In this document: one piece after another, positions 5,570 through 60,451 of the stretch | Layout: every line of letters begins with the position of its first letter | How positions within the stretch are numbered: the stretch's first letter is position 1 | Source: a virus | Lineage: Duplodnaviria > Heunggongvirae > Uroviricota > Caudoviricetes | Length of the DNA stretch: 64,000 bases | IMG/VR virus record: IMGVR_UViG_2778261571_000004 | Strand: one strand, 5' to 3' | Translations under genes and position numbers: made by a program | The notes under the pieces: generated by a model | What the model saw: the letters and a program-made list of their open reading frames with translations, nothing else | Databases searched by the model: none | What the model was told of the DNA's origin: nothing

Positions 5570-6163
5570 TTACATTAGCTGGTCAATCGTGATTGAAGAA
5601 CTCACAACCTGTGAGCCAACCAGAATTTCCTCGCCGTAGATAAGTTGTACTGGGTTGCCCTGGTTTTCTGTATTTTGAGGGCCGTCGAAATAATAAGAGT
5701 TCGAGTTATCTGCCTGTCTCACACTTTCGTTAGTGGCTTGCGGCGATATGATTTGTGATATGCCGCCCATCATCAGTGACAAACCGAGAGGGGCAAGAGC
5801 GGGCAAGCCAAAAAAAGATGCCACCAATAAAGTGGCTCCAACAACCGTCTGAAACCACCCAAAAGCAGATCCGCCACTTCCTCGCGGAACAGGGGTAATG
5901 CGAATTTTGGCAATGTTTTCAGACTGCCCCATCATCTGATATTCACTCTCGTCCACAGACCACTTGTGGCCCTGTTTATTGGTGATCTGGATGTGGTATC
6001 TGTCATAGGTTTTGATATTGCGCTTCATCCATGCTTTAAAACCAGGCTTGTTGGCCTCAATTAAATCCAGAGCCTGTTTTGTATTGCGCACCTTTAGATG
6101 CCAGTGGCGGCCAAAATGTTTGGCCATAGGGCCGCCAAGCTGCACATGAACTAACTCAGACAC
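5570..6163 (-). CDS. Tail assembly protein (lambda I family)
   Basis: 197 aa; hydrophobic central segment and C-terminal ...QLIYGEEILVGSQVVSSSI resemble lambda gpI; position between K-like and J-like genes. Confidence 0.75.
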   Translation of the reverse strand: MSELVHVQLGGPMAKHFGRHWHLKVRNTKQALDLIEANKPGFKAWMKRNIKTYDRYHIQITNKQGHKWSVDESEYQMMGQSENIAKIRITPVPRGSGGSAFGWFQTVVGATLLVASFFGLPALAPLGLSLMMGGISQIISPQATNESVRQADNSNSYYFDGPQNTENQGNPVQLIYGEEILVGSQVVSSSITIDQLM

Positions 6164-36414: not shown

Positions 36415-36726
36415 TCAGGCTATTGCCATCACTGATGCTCTCTGAATCTCTTGCTGGGCCACGCGGTTAACTTCCATCAAAGCCAGTTCGAGCTGATGTT
36501 CCGGCCACATTCTTTGAAATGCCACCCAGCCTTTTCCACGCTGGCGACGAACATTCATTACATAACGAGTAAAGGTGTTTTTATCGAAAGACACCGCTGT
36601 TTCACGGAACAGACGAATAGAGGTTCCATTGGCAACGATGTCCAGCAAAGTTAATTGAGCAACCAGCGCAGGCTTCTCTTTTCTCTTCTGGTCTTTGTCC
36701 AGACCAAGAACCAATGATTTTTTCAT
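36415..36726 (-). CDS. Hypothetical small basic protein
   Basis: Start set at MKKSLVLG with GGAG RBS directly downstream of motif family 2; ORF track 36415-36774. Confidence 0.3.
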   Translation of the reverse strand: MKKSLVLGLDKDQKRKEKPALVAQLTLLDIVANGTSIRLFRETAVSFDKNTFTRYVMNVRRQRGKGWVAFQRMWPEHQLELALMEVNRVAQQEIQRASVMAIA

Positions 36727-43170: not shown

Positions 43171-43197
43171 AAAAGGCGGTGCAATGCACCGCCTAAT
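43171..43197. terminator. Bidirectional terminator between convergent apbC and umuD-like gene
   Basis: aaaaggcggtgcaatgcaccgcct hairpin. Confidence 0.55.
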
Positions 43198-43205
43198 CAG
43201 CTCTC

Positions 43206-43595
43206 CTACATCACGGGACAATCATCAAACTCGCCACTTCTTGCGTCGTTGATAATGTGAGTGATCACACCAAACACGGCATTGCTGCCCGTGCATCCAT
43301 CGTCATCCTTTGGCAATGCTTCCTTCTTACCGGTTCTTAAATCCTCCAGATGCTGACGTGGGTACTTCCGGTATCTTTTTACGCGATATTCCCCATCCAG
43401 AGCGCATACAAGCAGAGAACCATCAACCGGGGTAAGTGAGGAATCGACCACCAGCAATGCACCCTGTAATATTCCCTCACGATGATGACTATCAGCTGCC
43501 CTCATGAAGTAGGTCGCTGAAGGATGTCTAATTATCTGCTGATCAAGAGAAATACGGCTCTCAGCATAATCCGCCGCAGGAGAAGGGAAGCCCAT
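43206..43595 (-). CDS. humD: UmuD'-like S24 peptidase-fold protein (HumD-like, no UmuC partner in window)
   Basis: 129 aa beginning GFPSPAADY, the position where UmuD is cleaved to UmuD'; Ser (ADSH) and Lys (RVKR) equivalents retained; GAGG RBS. Confidence 0.75.
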   Translation of the reverse strand: MGFPSPAADYAESRISLDQQIIRHPSATYFMRAADSHHREGILQGALLVVDSSLTPVDGSLLVCALDGEYRVKRYRKYPRQHLEDLRTGKKEALPKDDDGCTGSNAVFGVITHIINDARSGEFDDCPVM

Positions 43596-43613
43596 AGCGT
43601 TTTCACCTCAGAA

Positions 43614-43633
43614 TACTGTTTATCCATACAGTA
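43614..43633. promoter_or_regulatory. LexA (SOS) box in promoter of umuD-like gene
   Basis: tactgtttatccatacagta matches CTGT-N8-ACAG consensus, about 20-40 nt upstream of start. Confidence 0.7.
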
Positions 43634-43759
43634 TACATTAAAGATGCTTGAAGTGTGCAATAGCGCGATGCTTTGCGCTCGCCTGGTGGTGCGTTATTTT
43701 TTGGCTATATCTTCTTTCTGATATACCGGATCGTTTCCTTTTGGCAGCAGGAGGCTTAA

Positions 43760-43957
43760 CTACCGGTAGTGCCGTAGCCGTTCCATGAAATAGGTGCGCA
43801 GGTTCTCAGGTTGCTCACGGGCTACCTGTTCCGCTATGACGGGTATGTTCAATCGCTCTTTGTAGGCAACCCCCCTGGCAGCCAGGTCAACGTTAACTTT
43901 ATTCCTTTCTTCCTGGCTTTTAGCTGCTATGTTCCATTCGTTCATATTAAATCCCAT
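43760..43957 (-). CDS. Hypothetical small protein upstream of umuD-like gene
   Basis: 65 aa ORF, same strand, separated from humD-like gene by LexA box region. Confidence 0.3.
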
Positions 43958-44413
43958 CCAGAATAATTGAATAACGGCTATTATTTAGTCGCCGCAATAT
44001 CTTCAAAGTTTTTTTTCTCACCCCATTGCTTTTTGCGCACAGCTTATCTGGCTTGCGGTGCGCGAAATGTAAATTCGCCTTCAGAGTTATCCACAAAGTT
44101 ATGCACTTGCAACGGGGCCATTTTCCTCATACCGTGTTTGCACACACAGGAAATGGATATTTTATTAATTGAATTTTATTAAATAATAATGATAAGGAGA
44201 AAATTTGAGATGTAATCATGACATTAATAGATAGGGCCTGCATTACAGGCCCCAACTACATCAAGGAATTCACAGTTCCCTGATTTTTATACCGAAAACA
44301 TGTGCCGTAAGTTCACGTTAACGACTTTCTTTCACCGAATCCAACTATATAGAGGTTGGGTTTCTACGTCAACGTGAGAGCACGCAGCTTTACATTAGAC
44401 GAGGATTACCCTG

Positions 44414-44551
44414 ATGATTGTATTTTTTCAGTTTCTAAGTGCATTTTTAAATGCGCCTGTTCTTAGCCAAGTGCTGGCGATTGTCTTCATCGTGGTTCTG
44501 ATATGGTTTTTCAAGTCAGTGATAAACAGAGGCGTGCGCTGGCTTATTTAA
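44414..44551 (+). CDS. Putative small hydrophobic peptide (45 aa)
   Basis: Own translation MIVFFQFLSAFLNAPVLSQVLAIVFIVVLIWFFKSVINRGVRWLI; below ORF-track length cutoff; nested inverted repeats upstream. Confidence 0.25.
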   Translation: MIVFFQFLSAFLNAPVLSQVLAIVFIVVLIWFFKSVINRGVRWLI

Positions 44552-44734
44552 TGTCGCGATGAGATATTAATTCCCTTGCTGTTTAACCATTTTTTGTGTG
44601 TGCTGGTGAGCGTGTGAAGGCTCAATTTGTTGCCCACCAGTATTTACTATTTCTAAGCTCCACAGTGTCACTTCCGCACAAACAACTTAGCGCGGAATCA
44701 GTATTCGGCCCAAGATGTAAAAAGCCAACCTGCG

Positions 44735-44959
44735 TTATGGTTCGCATTTCCAAATAGTGTTCTGAACGCCCTTGCCGGGCGCGAGATGTAGATTAGCGTT
44801 CACGCTATGCTGATATACGGCTTTAGACTTTCCATATTGCTGACAGGCTTTATCTGCGGTTTTTTGCAGGCTATCCAGCCCATACCAGCCATCAGACTGG
44901 ATGCTTACCTTTTCACCGTCATTGTATTGCACCATCGCGCACCCAAACATGGCTATCAT
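44735..44959 (-). CDS. Hypothetical small protein
   Basis: 74 aa ORF immediately upstream of hsdM on opposite strand. Confidence 0.25.
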   Translation of the reverse strand: MIAMFGCAMVQYNDGEKVSIQSDGWYGLDSLQKTADKACQQYGKSKAVYQHSVNANLHLAPGKGVQNTIWKCEP

Positions 44960-45083: not shown

Positions 45084-46642
45084 ATGAAAATGACAAGTAT
45101 TCAACAACGTGCAGAGCTTCATCGTCAAATCTGGCAAATTGCTAACGATGTCAGGGGTTCGGTCGATGGATGGGATTTTAAGCAATACGTTCTGGGCGCA
45201 CTTTTCTACCGTTTTATCAGCGAAAATTTTTCCAGTTATATTGAAGCCGGTGATGACAGTATCTGTTATGCGAAACTGGATGACAGCGTAATTACTGATG
45301 ACATTAAAGACGATGCCATCAAAACTAAAGGCTACTTCATCTACCCCAGTCAGCTTTTCTGCAACGTAGCTGCGAAAGCAAATACTAATGACAGACTGAA
45401 TGCAGATTTAAACAGCATCTTCGTTGCTATCGAAAGTTCTGCTTACGGTTATCCTTCAGAAGCAGACATCAAAGGTTTGTTTGCTGATTTCGATACCACC
45501 AGTAACCGCCTGGGTAACACCGTTAAAGATAAAAATGCCCGCCTGGCTGCGGTTCTGAAAGGGGTTGAAGGGTTAAAACTTGGTGACTTCAACGAACATC
45601 AGATTGACCTGTTCGGTGATGCCTATGAGTTCCTGATTTCTAACTATGCGGCAAATGCCGGTAAGTCAGGCGGTGAGTTCTTTACACCGCAGCACGTCTC
45701 CAGGCTGATTGCACAACTGGCAATGCATGGCCAGACCCACGTTAACAAAATCTACGACCCGGCAGCGGGTTCCGGCTCACTGTTGTTGCAGGCGAAAAAA
45801 CAGTTTGATAACCACATCATCGAAGAAGGCTTTTTCGGTCAGGAAATCAACCATACGACCTATAACCTGGCGCGTATGAACATGTTTTTGCACAATATCA
45901 ACTACGACAAGTTTGATATCAAGCTGGGTAATACACTGACTGAGCCGCACTTCAGAGATGAAAAACCGTTTGACGCCATCGTATCTAACCCACCGTATTC
46001 GGTGAAATGGATTGGCAGCGATGACCCGACGCTGATTAACGATGAGCGTTTTGCCCCGGCTGGCGTTCTGGCCCCCAAATCCAAAGCTGACTTTGCGTTT
46101 GTATTACATGCACTGAACTATCTTTCTGCCAAAGGTCGTGCTGCGATTGTCTGCTTCCCGGGTATTTTTTACCGTGGCGGCGCGGAGCAGAAAATCCGTC
46201 AGTATCTGGTCGATAATAACTATGTCGAAACCGTGATTTCACTGGCACCGAACCTGTTCTTTGGCACCACCATTGCAGTAAACATTCTGGTGCTGTCTAA
46301 ACATAAAACGGATACCAACGTTCAGTTTATTGACGCCAGCGAACTGTTCAAAAAAGAGACTAACAACAATATCCTGACCGATGCCCATATCGAACAGATT
46401 ATGCAGGTATTTGCCAGCAAGGAAGATGTTGCTCATCTGGCGAAATCTGTCACGTTTGAGACCGTTGTCGCGAATGACTATAACCTGTCGGTAAGCAGCT
46501 ATGTGGAAGCGAAAGATACTCGCGAAATTATCGATATCGCTGAGTTGAATGCAGAACTGAAAACCACGGTCAGCAAAATCGACCAGTTGCGTAAAGATAT
46601 TGATGCGATTGTGGCTGAAATTGAAGGCTGCGAGGTGCAGAA

Positions 46643-46646
<4 letters not shown>
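45084..46646 (+). CDS. hsdM: Type I restriction-modification methyltransferase subunit (type IC, EcoR124-like)
   Basis: 520 aa; SAM-binding and NPPY (NPPYSVKW) N6-adenine methylase motifs; N-terminus matches remembered EcoR124I HsdM. Confidence 0.9.
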
Positions 46647-47890
<1,244 letters not shown>

Positions 47891-48011
47891 TTGACCATTG
47901 CTACCGACCGGGCCACCTTAACACCCGGTCTGTATATAGACTATTTTTTACGCGCCGGAAGTCACTCTTAACGCCCTTCCGGCCCTTGCCAGGCGGCACA
48001 AAGGATGCGCT

Positions 48012-51000
48012 ATGACTCATCAAACACACACCATTGCTGAATCCAATAACTTTATCGTCCTTGATAAGTACATCAAAGCTGAGCAAACAAGCGACAGCTA
48101 CCAGAGCGAATCGGACCTGGAACGTGAACTGATTCAGGACCTGCGGAATCAGGGTTATGAATTTATTTCCGTAAAATCACAGTCGGCAATGCTGTCCAAT
48201 GTTCGGGAACAGCTTCAGAGCCTCAATGGTGTGATGTTTAATGACAGCGAGTGGCGGCGCTTCACGGAGCAGTATCTGGACAATCCCAGCGATGGTATTC
48301 TGGATAAGACCCGTAAAATCCATATCGACTATATCTGCGACTTTATTTTTGACGACGGGCGTCTTGAGAACATCTATCTGATCGATAAAAAGAATCTCAT
48401 GCGCAACAAAGTGCAGATTATCCAGCAGTTTGAACAGGCAGGTTCTCATGCTAACCGTTATGACGTCACGATCCTGGTTAATGGCTTGCCTCTGGTGCAA
48501 ATCGAACTGAAAAAGCGCGGCGTGGCGATTCGTGAGGCTTTCAACCAGATACATCGTTACAGTAAAGAGAGTTTTAACAGCGAAAACTCCCTGTTTAAGT
48601 ATCTGCAACTGTTTGTCATTTCTAACGGCACCGATACCCGTTATTTTGCCAACACAACAAAGCGCGATAAAAACAGTTTTGATTTCACCATGAACTGGGC
48701 GAAATCAGACAACACGCTGATTAAAGACCTCAAAGACTTTACCGCTACCTTTTTCCAGAAACATACTCTGCTGAATGTTCTGGTGAACTACAGCGTGTTT
48801 GACAGTAGTCAGACGCTACTGGTGATGCGACCGTACCAGATTGCCGCCACCGAGCGCATTCTGTGGAAAATTAAGAGCTCCTTTACAGCGAAGAACTGGT
48901 CAAAACCGGAAAGCGGTGGGTATATCTGGCACACTACCGGTTCTGGTAAAACCCTTACCAGCTTTAAAGCCGCGCGTCTGGCAACAGAGCTGGACTTTAT
49001 TGATAAAGTCTTCTTTGTGGTCGACAGAAAAGACCTCGATTACCAGACCATGAAGGAATATCAGCGTTTTTCGCCAGACAGCGTCAACGGCTCGGAAAAT
49101 ACCGCAGGCCTTAAACGAAATCTGGATAAGGACGATAACAAAATTATCGTCACTACTATTCAGAAACTCAATAACCTGATGAAAGCAGAAAGCGACCTGC
49201 CTGTATATAATCAGCAAGTGGTGTTCATATTTGATGAATGCCACCGCAGCCAGTTTGGAGAAGCGCAGAAAAACCTGAAGAAGAAATTCAAACGCTATTA
49301 TCAGTTTGGTTTTACCGGCACCCCTATTTTCCCGGAAAACGCCTTAGGCTCAGAAACAACCGCCAGCGTATTTGGTCGTGAATTGCATTCGTATGTAATT
49401 ACCGATGCGATTCGTGACGAAAAAGTGCTCAAATTCAAGGTGGACTACAACGATGTGCGGCCACAGTTTAAGTCTTTAGAGACAGAAACTGACGAGAAAA
49501 AACTAAGTGCGGCTGAAAATCAGCAGGCGTTTCTTCATCCCATGCGTATTCAGGAAATCACGCAATATATTCTGAATAATTTCCGCCAGAAAACTCACCG
49601 TACCTTCCCTGGCTCAAAAGGTTTTAATGCTATGTTGGCAGTGAGCAGCGTGGATGCCGCGAAAGCCTATTATGCGACGTTTAAACGGTTACAAGAAGAA
49701 GCCGCTAATAAATCGGCTACCTATAAACCGCTGCGTATTGCGACAATCTTCTCCTTTGCCGCTAATGAAGAACAAAATGCCATTGGTGAAATTTCCGATG
49801 AAACTTTTGATACCAGCGCAATGGACAGCAGTGCTAAAGAGTTTCTGGACGCTGCAATTCGTGAATATAACAGCCATTTTAAAACTAACTTTAGCACCGA
49901 CAGTAACGGTTTTCAGAACTACTATCGTGATTTAGCCCAGCGGGTTAAAAATCAGGATATCGATCTGTTAATTGTCGTTGGGATGTTTTTAACCGGCTTC
50001 GACGCTCCAACATTGAACACGCTATTCGTCGATAAAAACTTGCGTTTTCACGGCCTGATGCAGGCATTTTCCCGCACCAACCGTATTTATGATGCAACTA
50101 AAACCTTCGGTAATATCGTCACTTTCCGGGATCTGGAACGCTCAACCATCGATGCCATAACGCTGTTTGGTGACAAAAACACCAAAAATGTAGTGTTAGA
50201 AAAGAGTTATGCAGAGTATATGGAAGGCTTTACTGATGCTGCTACAGGTGAAGCTAAACGCGGCTTTATGGCAGTAGTTTCAGAACTGGAACAACGGTTC
50301 CCTGACCCTGCCAGTATTGAAAGTGAAAAAGAGAAGAAAGACTTCGTTAAACTGTTTGGCGAATACCTGCGTGCCGAGAACATCCTGCAAAACTATGATG
50401 AATTTGCCACGCTGAAAGCCCTGCAACAAATCGATCTTAGCGATCCTGTTGCGGTAGAAAAATTCAAAGAAGAACATTATGTGGATGATGAAAAGTTCGC
50501 TGAATTGCAAACGATTCGTCTCCCTGCTGAACGCAAGATTCAGGATTATCGTTCTGCCTATAACGATATTCGTGACTGGCAGCGCCGCGAGAAAGAAGCT
50601 GATAAAAAAGAAAAATCAACCACTGACTGGGATGACGTGGTTTTTGAGGTCGATTTGCTGAAGTCTCAGGAAATAAACCTGGATTATATCCTTGGACTGA
50701 TTTTCGAACACAACAGACAAAATAAAGGCAAGGGCGAAATGATCGAAGAGGTCAAACGCTTAATTCGTTCAAGCCTGGGGAACCGGGCGAAAGAGGGCCT
50801 GGTGGTCGATTTTATTCAGCAAACGAACCTGGATGATTTACCAGACAAAGCCAGCATCATTGACGCGTTCTTTACCTTTGCTCAACACGAACAGCTACGT
50901 GAAGCAGAAGCGTTGATTAAAGAAGAAAATCTCAATGAAGAGGCGGCGAAACGCTATATTCGCACGTCTTTAAAACGCGAATACGCCACCGAAAATGGCA

Positions 51001-51128
51001 CAGAATTAAACGAGACATTACCAAAACTTAGTCCGTTAAACCCGCAATATAAAACGAAAAAACAGACGGTTTTCCAGAAAATCGTCACGTTTATTGAAAA
51101 GTTCAAAGGAGTAGGTGGGCAGATATAG
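48012..51128 (+). CDS. hsdR: Type I restriction endonuclease subunit
   Basis: 1038 aa; SF2 helicase motifs (TGSGKT, DECHRS) and N-terminal nuclease region; length equals EcoR124I HsdR. Confidence 0.9.
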
Positions 51129-58282: not shown

Positions 58283-58840
58283 TTACACAATTTCAGAGGG
58301 TAATTTAAAAAATCCGTATTTATTACGTGCCTTAAAGAAGCATTGCATCATTAAGTTTGTGTCATATAAGGCACTATGTGCTTTGGCATGATCGTATATA
58401 AAGCCAAGAGAGAAGGCCAATTCTTCAAGGCGAGGACGTTTACCGTCTTCTGTGGCCCACAATCCCGATAACATAGTATCTATAACGGGAACGTCTGGCA
58501 GTCTTACTCCATACCCTGAAAACTCGTGTCTAATAAATGGTATATCAAACGCTTCGCCGTTATGAGCAACCCACGCACTACATGCCTCCATATAAGCGCC
58601 AATTTCGCTGGCATGATTTGACAACAAAGGTTCAGCTGCCAGCTGTTCTAATGAAATGCCATGAACGGCTTGAGCTTTCGGATCTATGTTTCTGCGAGGG
58701 TTAAAACGCATCTCCAGACTATCAATATGTCTCTGTGTCTCCAGTTCATAGCGGGTAATTGCGATTTCAATAATTTTATGACCAGCAAGGAAATCCAGTC
58801 CCGTAGACTCGATATCGATGCCTGCAACAATCGTTGTCAT
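58283..58840 (-). CDS. 3'-5' exonuclease (DEDDh / DnaQ-like)
   Basis: Exo motifs GIDIESTGLD, HNGEAFDIPF, HSALYDTNLM. Confidence 0.75.
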   Translation of the reverse strand: MTTIVAGIDIESTGLDFLAGHKIIEIAITRYELETQRHIDSLEMRFNPRRNIDPKAQAVHGISLEQLAAEPLLSNHASEIGAYMEACSAWVAHNGEAFDIPFIRHEFSGYGVRLPDVPVIDTMLSGLWATEDGKRPRLEELAFSLGFIYDHAKAHSALYDTNLMMQCFFKARNKYGFFKLPSEIV

Positions 58841-59330: not shown

Positions 59331-59975
59331 CTAATGAACGGTTACTCGGCCACAGAACCGGTTTTCTATCTTTTCTACAGCGTTATCTAGCATTCTCATC
59401 ACTGATCTGGCTCTTGCTTCAACCGTGCGATATCGGTTGGAAACGACGAAGGTTTGCAGATCCCCCCTTTGCGGATGCAGGTGAATTTTTGTCAGTTCCC
59501 CGCACATCAACGCATCAATACGAGCGACATACAGACGGTCTAATGATGCTCGTTGTGATCGCAAGTAATCTCGCTCTGAGAGAGCGACTCCCGGGCGTAA
59601 GCCAGCAATGGCGTTAAAGTTTGAAATAGCAGTTTTGTGGCAAAACTTTTCGATATCGAGGGCTAACTCAATACATCGATCTTCATTGGTATGGCCGACC
59701 AAATCCAACGTGTAGGCCATAACATCAGCAGGTGTGCGATCGATAACAAAGCCTTCAACACCACGCGTAAGTAGCTCTATATGCTTTGCTATTTCCATTT
59801 GAATCTGAAGCCGCTCATATAGAGGCATAGACTCACCTACTCGAACACCGAGTCGGCTCATCAAACTTCCGACACCAGCATCCACGTAAGGGATTCCGTA
59901 ATGTTTGTCGATATATTTAGCCAGGGTTGTTTTCCCACTGCCCTGAGCACCAGTGATCCCAATCCGGTAATCCAT
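59331..59975 (-). CDS. P-loop kinase, putative deoxynucleoside monophosphate kinase
   Basis: Walker A GAQGSGKTT at N-terminus; context among nucleotide metabolism genes. Confidence 0.5.
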   Translation of the reverse strand: MDYRIGITGAQGSGKTTLAKYIDKHYGIPYVDAGVGSLMSRLGVRVGESMPLYERLQIQMEIAKHIELLTRGVEGFVIDRTPADVMAYTLDLVGHTNEDRCIELALDIEKFCHKTAISNFNAIAGLRPGVALSERDYLRSQRASLDRLYVARIDALMCGELTKIHLHPQRGDLQTFVVSNRYRTVEARARSVMRMLDNAVEKIENRFCGRVTVH

Positions 59976-60451
59976 TACGACCTTCTGTATACGATCTGCG
60001 AAAAGCCAGGCTCTTCCTCGCTGGCTCGTTGGGTATAAGCTGTTTCAACAGGCACAAAGCCTAAGTTACGCATCATGCTTGCCGGGAAGAATGCATCGGC
60101 GTTTGGTACATCAACGCCGATGTGGGAGAGCCAAATCTCTTCAACATGCGGCATGAATAGCGAGTAAATTTGTTCCCCGCCAATCACCCACACAGGCTCT
60201 GGTAATCGCAACACATCATCCACACCAGCAGGGTAGAATCCATTTGGTACAAAGCCATGAGAGCGCGTCAAAACGAGGTTATGACGCTCTGGAAGAGGGC
60301 GTTTGAGACTTTCCATCGTTTTACGCCCCATAACGACAGTGGCGTTTTTGGTGAGTCTCTTAAATAGCTTCAGATCGGTAGAACAACGCCAGGGCAGTTC
60401 GTTCGCTATGCCGATCTCATAGTTACGGCCAACAGCAGCGATCATCTTCAT
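59975..60451 (-). CDS. frd: Dihydrofolate reductase
   Basis: 158 aa; pattern match to FolA (MIAAVGRNYEIGIANELPW ... VVMGRKTMESLKRPLPER ... VIGGEQIY). Confidence 0.8.
   Translation of the reverse strand: MKMIAAVGRNYEIGIANELPWRCSTDLKLFKRLTKNATVVMGRKTMESLKRPLPERHNLVLTRSHGFVPNGFYPAGVDDVLRLPEPVWVIGGEQIYSLFMPHVEEIWLSHIGVDVPNADAFFPASMMRNLGFVPVETAYTQRASEEEPGFSQIVYRRS

Follow-up and report, generated by a model that had tools for sequence, protein, structure and literature searches.

The window analyzed here, a 64,000-nucleotide stretch of tailed-phage DNA, codes on its minus strand, at 43206–43595, for a 129-aa pre-truncated UmuD′-type protein that is recognized by both NCBIfam and Pfam models and which, judged from its family-model match and its anatomy, is an orthologue of HumD rather than a protein merely resembling it. 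The humD gene is already known: it has been described since 1999, has its own NCBI family model, and its exact protein is present in RefSeq on many E. coli phage-plasmids. In this window it is found together with a LexA box and a truncated version of the P1 gene hot in a P1-type block of DNA, lodged in a phage-plasmid of the SSU5-like type. A sequence-only reading of the same stretch had described the gene as a stand-alone UmuD′ homolog comparable to HumD of phage P1, carried as cargo by a mobile element. Both parts of that description hold, with the family model recognizing the product at 219.8 bits and the gene lying, without umuC, at a variable cargo site of the phage-plasmid.

Identity and anatomy of HumD

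The NCBIfam equivalog model NF051876 ("HumD family translesion DNA polymerase") exceeds its cut-off of 120 bits by a wide margin on the humD product (E = 8e-66), and aligns residues 1–129 of the protein with model positions 1–129. The product is additionally matched by Pfam Peptidase_S24, and the PHROGs library labels it as UmuD-like. Among individual phage proteins, one of Escherichia phage Cyrano is 100% identical to it, HumD of phage P1 (YP_006569.1) 91.5%, and gp26 of N15, gp23 of phiKO2 and the protein named UmuD in HK639 64–73%. The exact protein recurs on at least 1000 public contigs, under names that include that of the NCBI family; in PLSDB, copies at 90% identity or above occur on about 640 plasmids. 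Hence, humD is a maintained gene.

The N-terminus of the protein reads MGFPSPAADY, and its Gly2 aligns with Gly25 of E. coli UmuD (M1–G2 on C24–G25), which is the residue right after the Cys24/Gly25 self-cleavage site and the first residue of UmuD′. An in-frame TGA at 43610–43608, five codons 5′ of the humD ATG, excludes a longer UmuD-like precursor. Thus, the proposal from inspection of the sequence that translation begins at the very point where UmuD is cut is borne out. The same start is prevalent among the 120 HumD-family cluster representatives that we examined (64–99% identity), 109 of which have Met followed directly by GFPSP, i.e., exactly one residue before this motif. A tblastn alignment had raised the possibility of an N-terminal extension in Cyrano, with UmuD residues 11–24 matching upstream of the humD start; this was rejected from the annotation, in which the CDS begins at the same ATG, and because the additional alignment runs through the non-coding stretch with the promoter and the LexA box.

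The alignment with E. coli UmuD spans Gly25 to the end of UmuD at about 42–44% identity over the whole core, with the Ser and Lys positions of the active site retained and a similarly placed LexA box upstream of the gene. In contrast to the humD product, UmuD has a 24-residue N-terminal segment with the cleavage site and is encoded in an operon with umuC; the former, for its part, shows a 4-residue insertion and a 10-residue conserved C-terminal extension relative to UmuD. Correspondingly, the model for UmuD proper (NF007621) scores the product at 87 bits, below its cut-off of 110, and both the N-terminal arm and the umuC operon of UmuD proper are wanting. Comparison with the structures of UmuD′ recovered 1UMU (E = 6.7e-23), with 1UMU and 1I4V both scoring in the range of 1e-22. 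An AlphaFold2 model computed from a 99-sequence family alignment was poor (mean pLDDT 46) because that alignment is shallow, its members being at least 67% identical, and it was discarded. The predicted core fold accordingly rests on the sequence matches to the UmuD′ structures.

The closest well-studied relative is P1 HumD, which is likewise a 129-aa protein beginning at the UmuD′ N-terminus and bearing the same C-terminal tail, and whose gene has a homologous ribosome-binding site, promoter and LexA box, lies downstream of hot and has no umuC partner. The differences lie in the surroundings: P1 is a P1-like myovirus, whereas the element studied here is an SSU5-like siphovirus phage-plasmid; P1 has the lxr gene between hot and humD, which is absent here; and P1 has phd-doc downstream of humD, whereas here a terminator and apbC take that place. 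The proteins of N15 (gp26), phiKO2 (gp23), HK639 and HK140 are similarly stand-alone versions of 127–129 aa, at 64–73% identity, that begin with MGFPSPA, carry the EFDDCPV tail and have a LexA box upstream of their genes. They have Thr at the position of Ser36, and their genes are neighbored by tail fiber and par genes, or by dinI.

Promoter, LexA box and predicted SOS control

The LexA box, which had been placed 20–40 nt upstream of the gene by the earlier inspection, was recovered at 43614–43633 (minus-strand reading TACTGTATGGATAAACAGTA) by both its consensus match and its alignment with P1; it spans 19–38 nt 5′ of the humD ATG. A consensus scan further points to a putative sigma-70-like promoter, TGCACA-18 nt-TATACT, at 43630–43659 on the minus strand (9 of 12 positions), whose −10 hexamer overlaps the box. 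With the promoter so placed, this is the classical geometry for LexA repression. Between the box and the gene is a Shine–Dalgarno-like GAGGTG (43604–43609, minus strand), 8 nt before the ATG, and the stretch GAGGTGAAAACGCTATG is identical in P1. Downstream of the gene, a G+C-rich hairpin terminator at 43174–43194 separates the convergent apbC and humD; of the 9 base pairs in its stem 7 are GC, and a TTTTT run comes after it on the minus strand.

The bare CTGT-N8-ACAG core of such sites is not rare, with 2 matches in the window against 0.84 expected. A 20-mer within three mismatches of TACTG(TA)5CAGTA is, on the other hand, unique in the window and was found in none of 100 shuffles. The second core match, at 36597, was rejected as a LexA box on account of its position within a coding ORF, its GC-rich spacer and its missing TA flanks.

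Comparison with relatives also speaks for regulation by the SOS response. The window and P1 can be aligned base for base through the ribosome-binding site, promoter and box, the conservation extending from TTGCAC onwards, and the homologous site of P1 carries an annotation as the LexA operator of lxr and humD. We extracted the 120 nt upstream of eight HumD-family genes (from this window, P1, Cyrano, N15, phiKO2, HK639, D6 and RCS47) and found a LexA box in all eight, 34–64 nt before the start. In Cyrano, N15, HK639 and phiKO2 the box is kept despite unrelated flanking DNA, and a humD homolog in a P2-like prophage of Citrobacter also has one upstream. The box lies at nearly the same distance from the start codon at this humD (−38) as at E. 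coli umuD (−39). Moreover, humD has been described as a LexA-regulated SOS gene (PMC9603915). Together, these observations support a predicted control of humD by LexA via the box at 43614–43633.

The box of Cyrano differs, reading TACTGTATGTGTATACAGTA. In the Citrobacter prophage (locus L014, 4439–5390) the box TACTGGATGGATATACAGTA lies between dinI, transcribed away from it on one side, and an 80-aa ORF on the other, which has no Pfam match on record and ends 2 nt before humD. The dinI gene of phiKO2 is likewise divergent from the HumD gene, with one LexA box shared by the two.

The phage-plasmid and the absence of umuC

The whole 64-kb window is collinear with the 114-kb E. coli plasmid NZ_AP027904.1 at 95–99% identity. 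This collinearity places the window within an SSU5-like phage-plasmid of E. coli, about 110 kb in size. The genes in the window include those for a tail fiber, tape measure, capsid, portal, terminase and ParB, along with metG, apbC, humD, hot, a type I restriction–modification system, RNase H, a Dam-like methylase, a DnaQ-like exonuclease, dfrA51, thymidylate synthase and nrdB. The part of the reference plasmid outside the window codes for RepA, DnaE, a DnaB-like helicase, primase, ligase and tRNAs. A chromosomal island, as the pair metG–apbC might suggest, was rejected because the collinear 114-kb plasmid carries phage head, tail and terminase genes as well as repA and parB. The housekeeping-like metG, apbC, rnhA, thyA and nrdB are all mistakable for chromosomal genes. 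The sequence-only reading had missed this context, i.e., that metG–apbC belongs to the phage-plasmid and not to a chromosome.

Among the remaining genes, the ORF at 59975–60451 on the minus strand corresponds to dfrA51, a trimethoprim-resistant dihydrofolate reductase annotated in the collinear plasmid, and the presence of dfrA51 in phage-plasmids is the subject of a 2025 paper (PMC12217456). An Rfam scan at gathering thresholds recovered no RNA families in the window.

The claim that the window has no umuC is confirmed by a tblastn search with E. coli UmuC, which gave no match in the 64 kb at E ≤ 10. A umuC gene just beyond the window was also sought: the same search over four loci covering the whole of the collinear, complete and 97–98% identical NZ_AP027904.1 was equally negative, and the PGAP annotation of this plasmid lists no Y-family polymerase. 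Further, no umuC was seen in the examined flanks of the homologs in P1, N15, phiKO2, HK639, D6, RCS47 and the Citrobacter prophages. The host, in turn, is almost universally equipped, with umuC present in 5423 of 5426 complete E. coli genomes; a partner for HumD is therefore available there.

The upstream hot gene

[quoted passage not shown] As with P1 Hot and E. coli HolE, its product matches the theta family of Pfam (PF06440; 3.7e-29, 100.7 bits against a gathering threshold of 34.6), over model positions 1–59 of 70. The NCBIfam theta model gives 91.4 bits, just under its cut-off of 97. Over 65 residues the product shares 92% identity with P1 Hot, and among known structures it matches those of HOT (1SE7, 2IDO) along residues 1–61 of the 83-residue chain. 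Unlike the full-length P1 protein, it lacks the last 22 residues of Hot, as an amber TAG stands at 43760–43762 where P1 has CAG. The 61-aa allele is found on 81 contigs, whereas the forms of 83 and 79 aa each occur on at least 1000. There is no LexA box specific to hot.

P1 Hot is a theta homolog that binds epsilon, the proofreading subunit of the host, and stabilizes it. A DnaQ-like exonuclease of the RNase_T family (58283–58840, minus strand), only 29% identical to E. coli epsilon, is encoded by the element, whose own Pol III alpha gene, dnaE, lies outside the window (NZ_AP027904.1 11426–16891), where it is interrupted by IS100 in the reference plasmid. The element hence carries alpha-, epsilon- and theta-like genes in the form of dnaE, the DnaQ-like gene and hot. 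We do not claim the phage-encoded epsilon-like protein as the partner of Hot: its identity to the host epsilon is 29%, and P1 Hot, with which the Hot of this element shares 92% identity, acts on the epsilon of the host. Stabilization of the host epsilon by Hot has been reported (PMC2528190).

A P1-type module at a variable cargo site

The P1-type block, comprising humD, hot and the upfM-upfN-upfO region but not lxr, occupies 43206–44608. A blastn comparison of the window with the P1 locus aligned 43216–43644 at 86% and 43709–44608 at 81% identity; the homology thus runs from the humD stop codon to about position 44608 and covers humD, its promoter and box, hot and the upfO-upfN-upfM region. 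In the alignment, approximately 690 bp of P1, including lxr, which in P1 separates hot from the LexA box, are swapped for about 30 nt. The lxr-less order hot–humD is also found in the P1-like phages RCS47 and vB_EcoM-813R1.

The SSU5-like phages Cyrano, CMS-2020a and PhiR41_1 share apbC, humD and the LexA box with the window, and hot is absent from this place in them. The similarity to these three phages breaks just 5′ of the humD box and promoter (window 43635–43650 against Cyrano 5950–5965 in locus L003). Since the breakpoints are just beyond the LexA box, humD lies at the edge of a variable cargo site. This has a parallel in P1-like elements, where pmgT–humD is a highly variable region (PMC9603915). 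As a small P1-type SOS module, hot and humD pass from one phage-plasmid lineage to another that is unrelated to it, at a hot spot for cargo.

The block adjoins a type I restriction–modification system, hsdM-hsdS-hsdR, at 45084–51128 on the plus strand, whose HsdR has an EcoR124-type C-terminal domain. According to the P1 annotation, the DNA flanking humD-phd-doc is 96–98% identical to the flanks of the EcoDXXI and R124/3 hsd loci, which points to a common hot spot of recombination.

Two small ORFs in this neighborhood deserve a record. One, at 44414–44551 on the plus strand, codes for a strongly hydrophobic product of 45 aa, MIVFFQFLSAFLNAPVLSQVLAIVFIVVLIWFFKSVINRGVRWLI, and is conserved as an unannotated collinear ORF in P1 (locus L002, 2409–2546, minus strand). 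The P1 counterpart overlaps upfM on the opposite strand, and the differences between the two are mostly swaps among I, V, L and F. It has no PHROG match and may be a small membrane peptide. The other, of 74 aa at 44735–44959 on the minus strand, gives a full-length match to PHROG 7757 (1.7e-51) and was left unannotated by PGAP in the near-identical plasmid.

Predicted function and the conserved tail

We consider it probable, with good confidence, that HumD is a LexA-controlled, pre-cleaved UmuD′ that joins the host UmuC to form a translesion polymerase like Pol V. Its predicted dimerization, binding to UmuC and RecA*, complementation of UmuD′ and control by LexA are extended to it from published work on P1 HumD. 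This work (McLenigan et al. 1999) is summarized in PMC7092418 and PMC9603915, and the published complementation of UmuD′ shows that P1 HumD can serve as a Pol V subunit.

Accordingly worded as a scheme, in the undamaged lysogen LexA would sit on the box overlapping the −10 hexamer and keep humD off. Upon DNA damage LexA would be cleaved and HumD made, which would then dimerize and join the SOS-induced host UmuC on RecA filaments. A Pol V-like polymerase might thereby be formed sooner than by the host alone, without the slow RecA*-dependent self-cleavage of UmuD. The likely benefit would be that damaged phage-plasmid and host DNA are copied, in the manner of Weigle reactivation, with mutagenesis as the cost. 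The SOS response is also the time when temperate elements are typically induced. In the 1999 work of McLenigan et al., P1 HumD is said to be poorly expressed and to need a high-copy vector for good complementation, so that under natural conditions it may have a small effect on mutagenesis.

Other observations also count against this reading: the putative promoter has only 9 of 12 consensus positions, and the element's own dnaE and DnaQ-like exonuclease may provide a partner besides the host UmuC. Moreover, a mere substitute for UmuD′ does not explain the near-invariant tail of HumD: the last eight residues, EFDDCPV[M/I], are conserved in 94–117 of the 120 representatives at each position and are absent from UmuD, and the plasmid umuD homologs align only to residues 2–119/120. 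We found no explanation of this tail in the literature, as far as searched. It bears a loose likeness to the C-terminal tip of SSB, PMDFDDDIPF, with three positions identical, which is a lead rather than a finding. One could conceive, as a rather improbable proposition, that the hallmark of the stand-alone HumD family is not so much the degenerate protease site as the tail [G/A]EFDDCPV[M/I]-COOH, which UmuD and the MucA/ImpA-type proteins of plasmids lack. Acidic with a hydrophobic end, it could then be a docking peptide for host replisome or repair proteins that read the SSB tip, or one used to out-compete the host UmuD′ for UmuC, and HumD would belong with hot, dinI and lxr to a set of SOS-timed replisome modulators.

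The same tail, as a hint of an additional partner, bears on a further possibility, namely that HumD is chiefly a brake or timer of the SOS response. It would then form heterodimers with host UmuD or UmuD′, or else take up places on RecA filaments or UmuC, and so change the UmuD2C checkpoint, recombination or the timing of prophage induction in favor of the phage-plasmid. The company of the HumD genes is of interest in this regard, as they lie beside modulators of RecA or the replisome and with no polymerase: hot and lxr in P1, hot in this window, and dinI in phiKO2 and the Citrobacter prophage. However, the published complementation of UmuD′ by P1 HumD speaks for the capability to serve as a Pol V subunit, and an inhibition of host functions finds no support in this analysis. 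We hence regard this role as unlikely to be the principal one; it is nevertheless compatible with the formation of a Pol V-like polymerase, and the two are not mutually exclusive.

The Ser/Lys dyad

Ser36 and Lys73 of the humD product align with Ser60 and Lys97 of UmuD, so the presence of the dyad, as claimed from the sequence alone, stands; its weight as a sign of catalysis, in contrast, is weak. The GDSM motif of the self-cleaving relatives reads ADSH here, and the chain is devoid of a cleavage site. Across the 120 representatives, 75 have Ser at the position of Ser36, 43 have Thr and 2 have Ala, the Asp of the GDSM motif is highly variable (R/A/C/N/D/S), and Lys73 is kept in 117. The protein of HK639 shows Met in place of the Lys. 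Because the Ser position is so often Thr and the GDSM motif is degenerate, the dyad appears to say little regarding catalysis.

These data bear directly on the possibility that HumD is a protease acting in trans via a Ser/Lys or Thr/Lys site. Its substrate could be, for example, the host UmuD, cut to UmuD′ within heterodimers, or a further repressor of the LexA kind, and the host would gain its own Pol V sooner. That UmuD-like proteins can cleave between molecules was reportedly observed by McDonald et al. in 1998. Both Ser36 and Lys73 are present in the protein studied here, and a potential Ser/Thr nucleophile is seen in 118 of the 120 representatives alongside the widely kept Lys. However, the retention of the Lys is not above background in a set whose members are 64–99% identical with a mean column identity of 79%, and the replacement of Ser by Thr in 36% of them, the Met of HK639 and the loss of the GDSM consensus with its variable Asp position all tell against this reading. 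We accordingly see a trans-acting protease as very unlikely, and favor the pre-cleaved UmuD′ partner of host UmuC over it.

Beyond the HumD family, a group of PLSDB matches (H94–H100, on plasmids of about 34–60 kb) annotated as "S24 family peptidase" is 48% identical to HumD and aligned from residue 1. It may represent another pre-truncated UmuD′-like lineage, found on conjugative plasmids.

Least probable of all is that the module is a passive passenger that does little or nothing in this element, a remnant brought in from a P1-like phage-plasmid by recombination at the cargo hot spot: the premature amber codon of hot, the minority status of this allele, the missing lxr, the differing regions upstream of humD in similar SSU5-like phages with breakpoints just past the LexA box, and the high variability of pmgT–humD in P1-like elements (PMC9603915) would all fit such an origin, but the humD gene is intact, with the same sequence on at least 1000 contigs, keeps its ribosome-binding site, promoter and LexA box, and is retained beside apbC even in several SSU5-like phages from which hot was lost or in which it was never present.

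Significance

Beyond correct annotation this finding matters little, the conserved tail of HumD being the only item that is left unexplained. As for the annotation, the region can be labeled confidently as humD and a truncated hot under a LexA box, and its metG–apbC neighbors should not be read as chromosome, in an element that also carries dfrA51.
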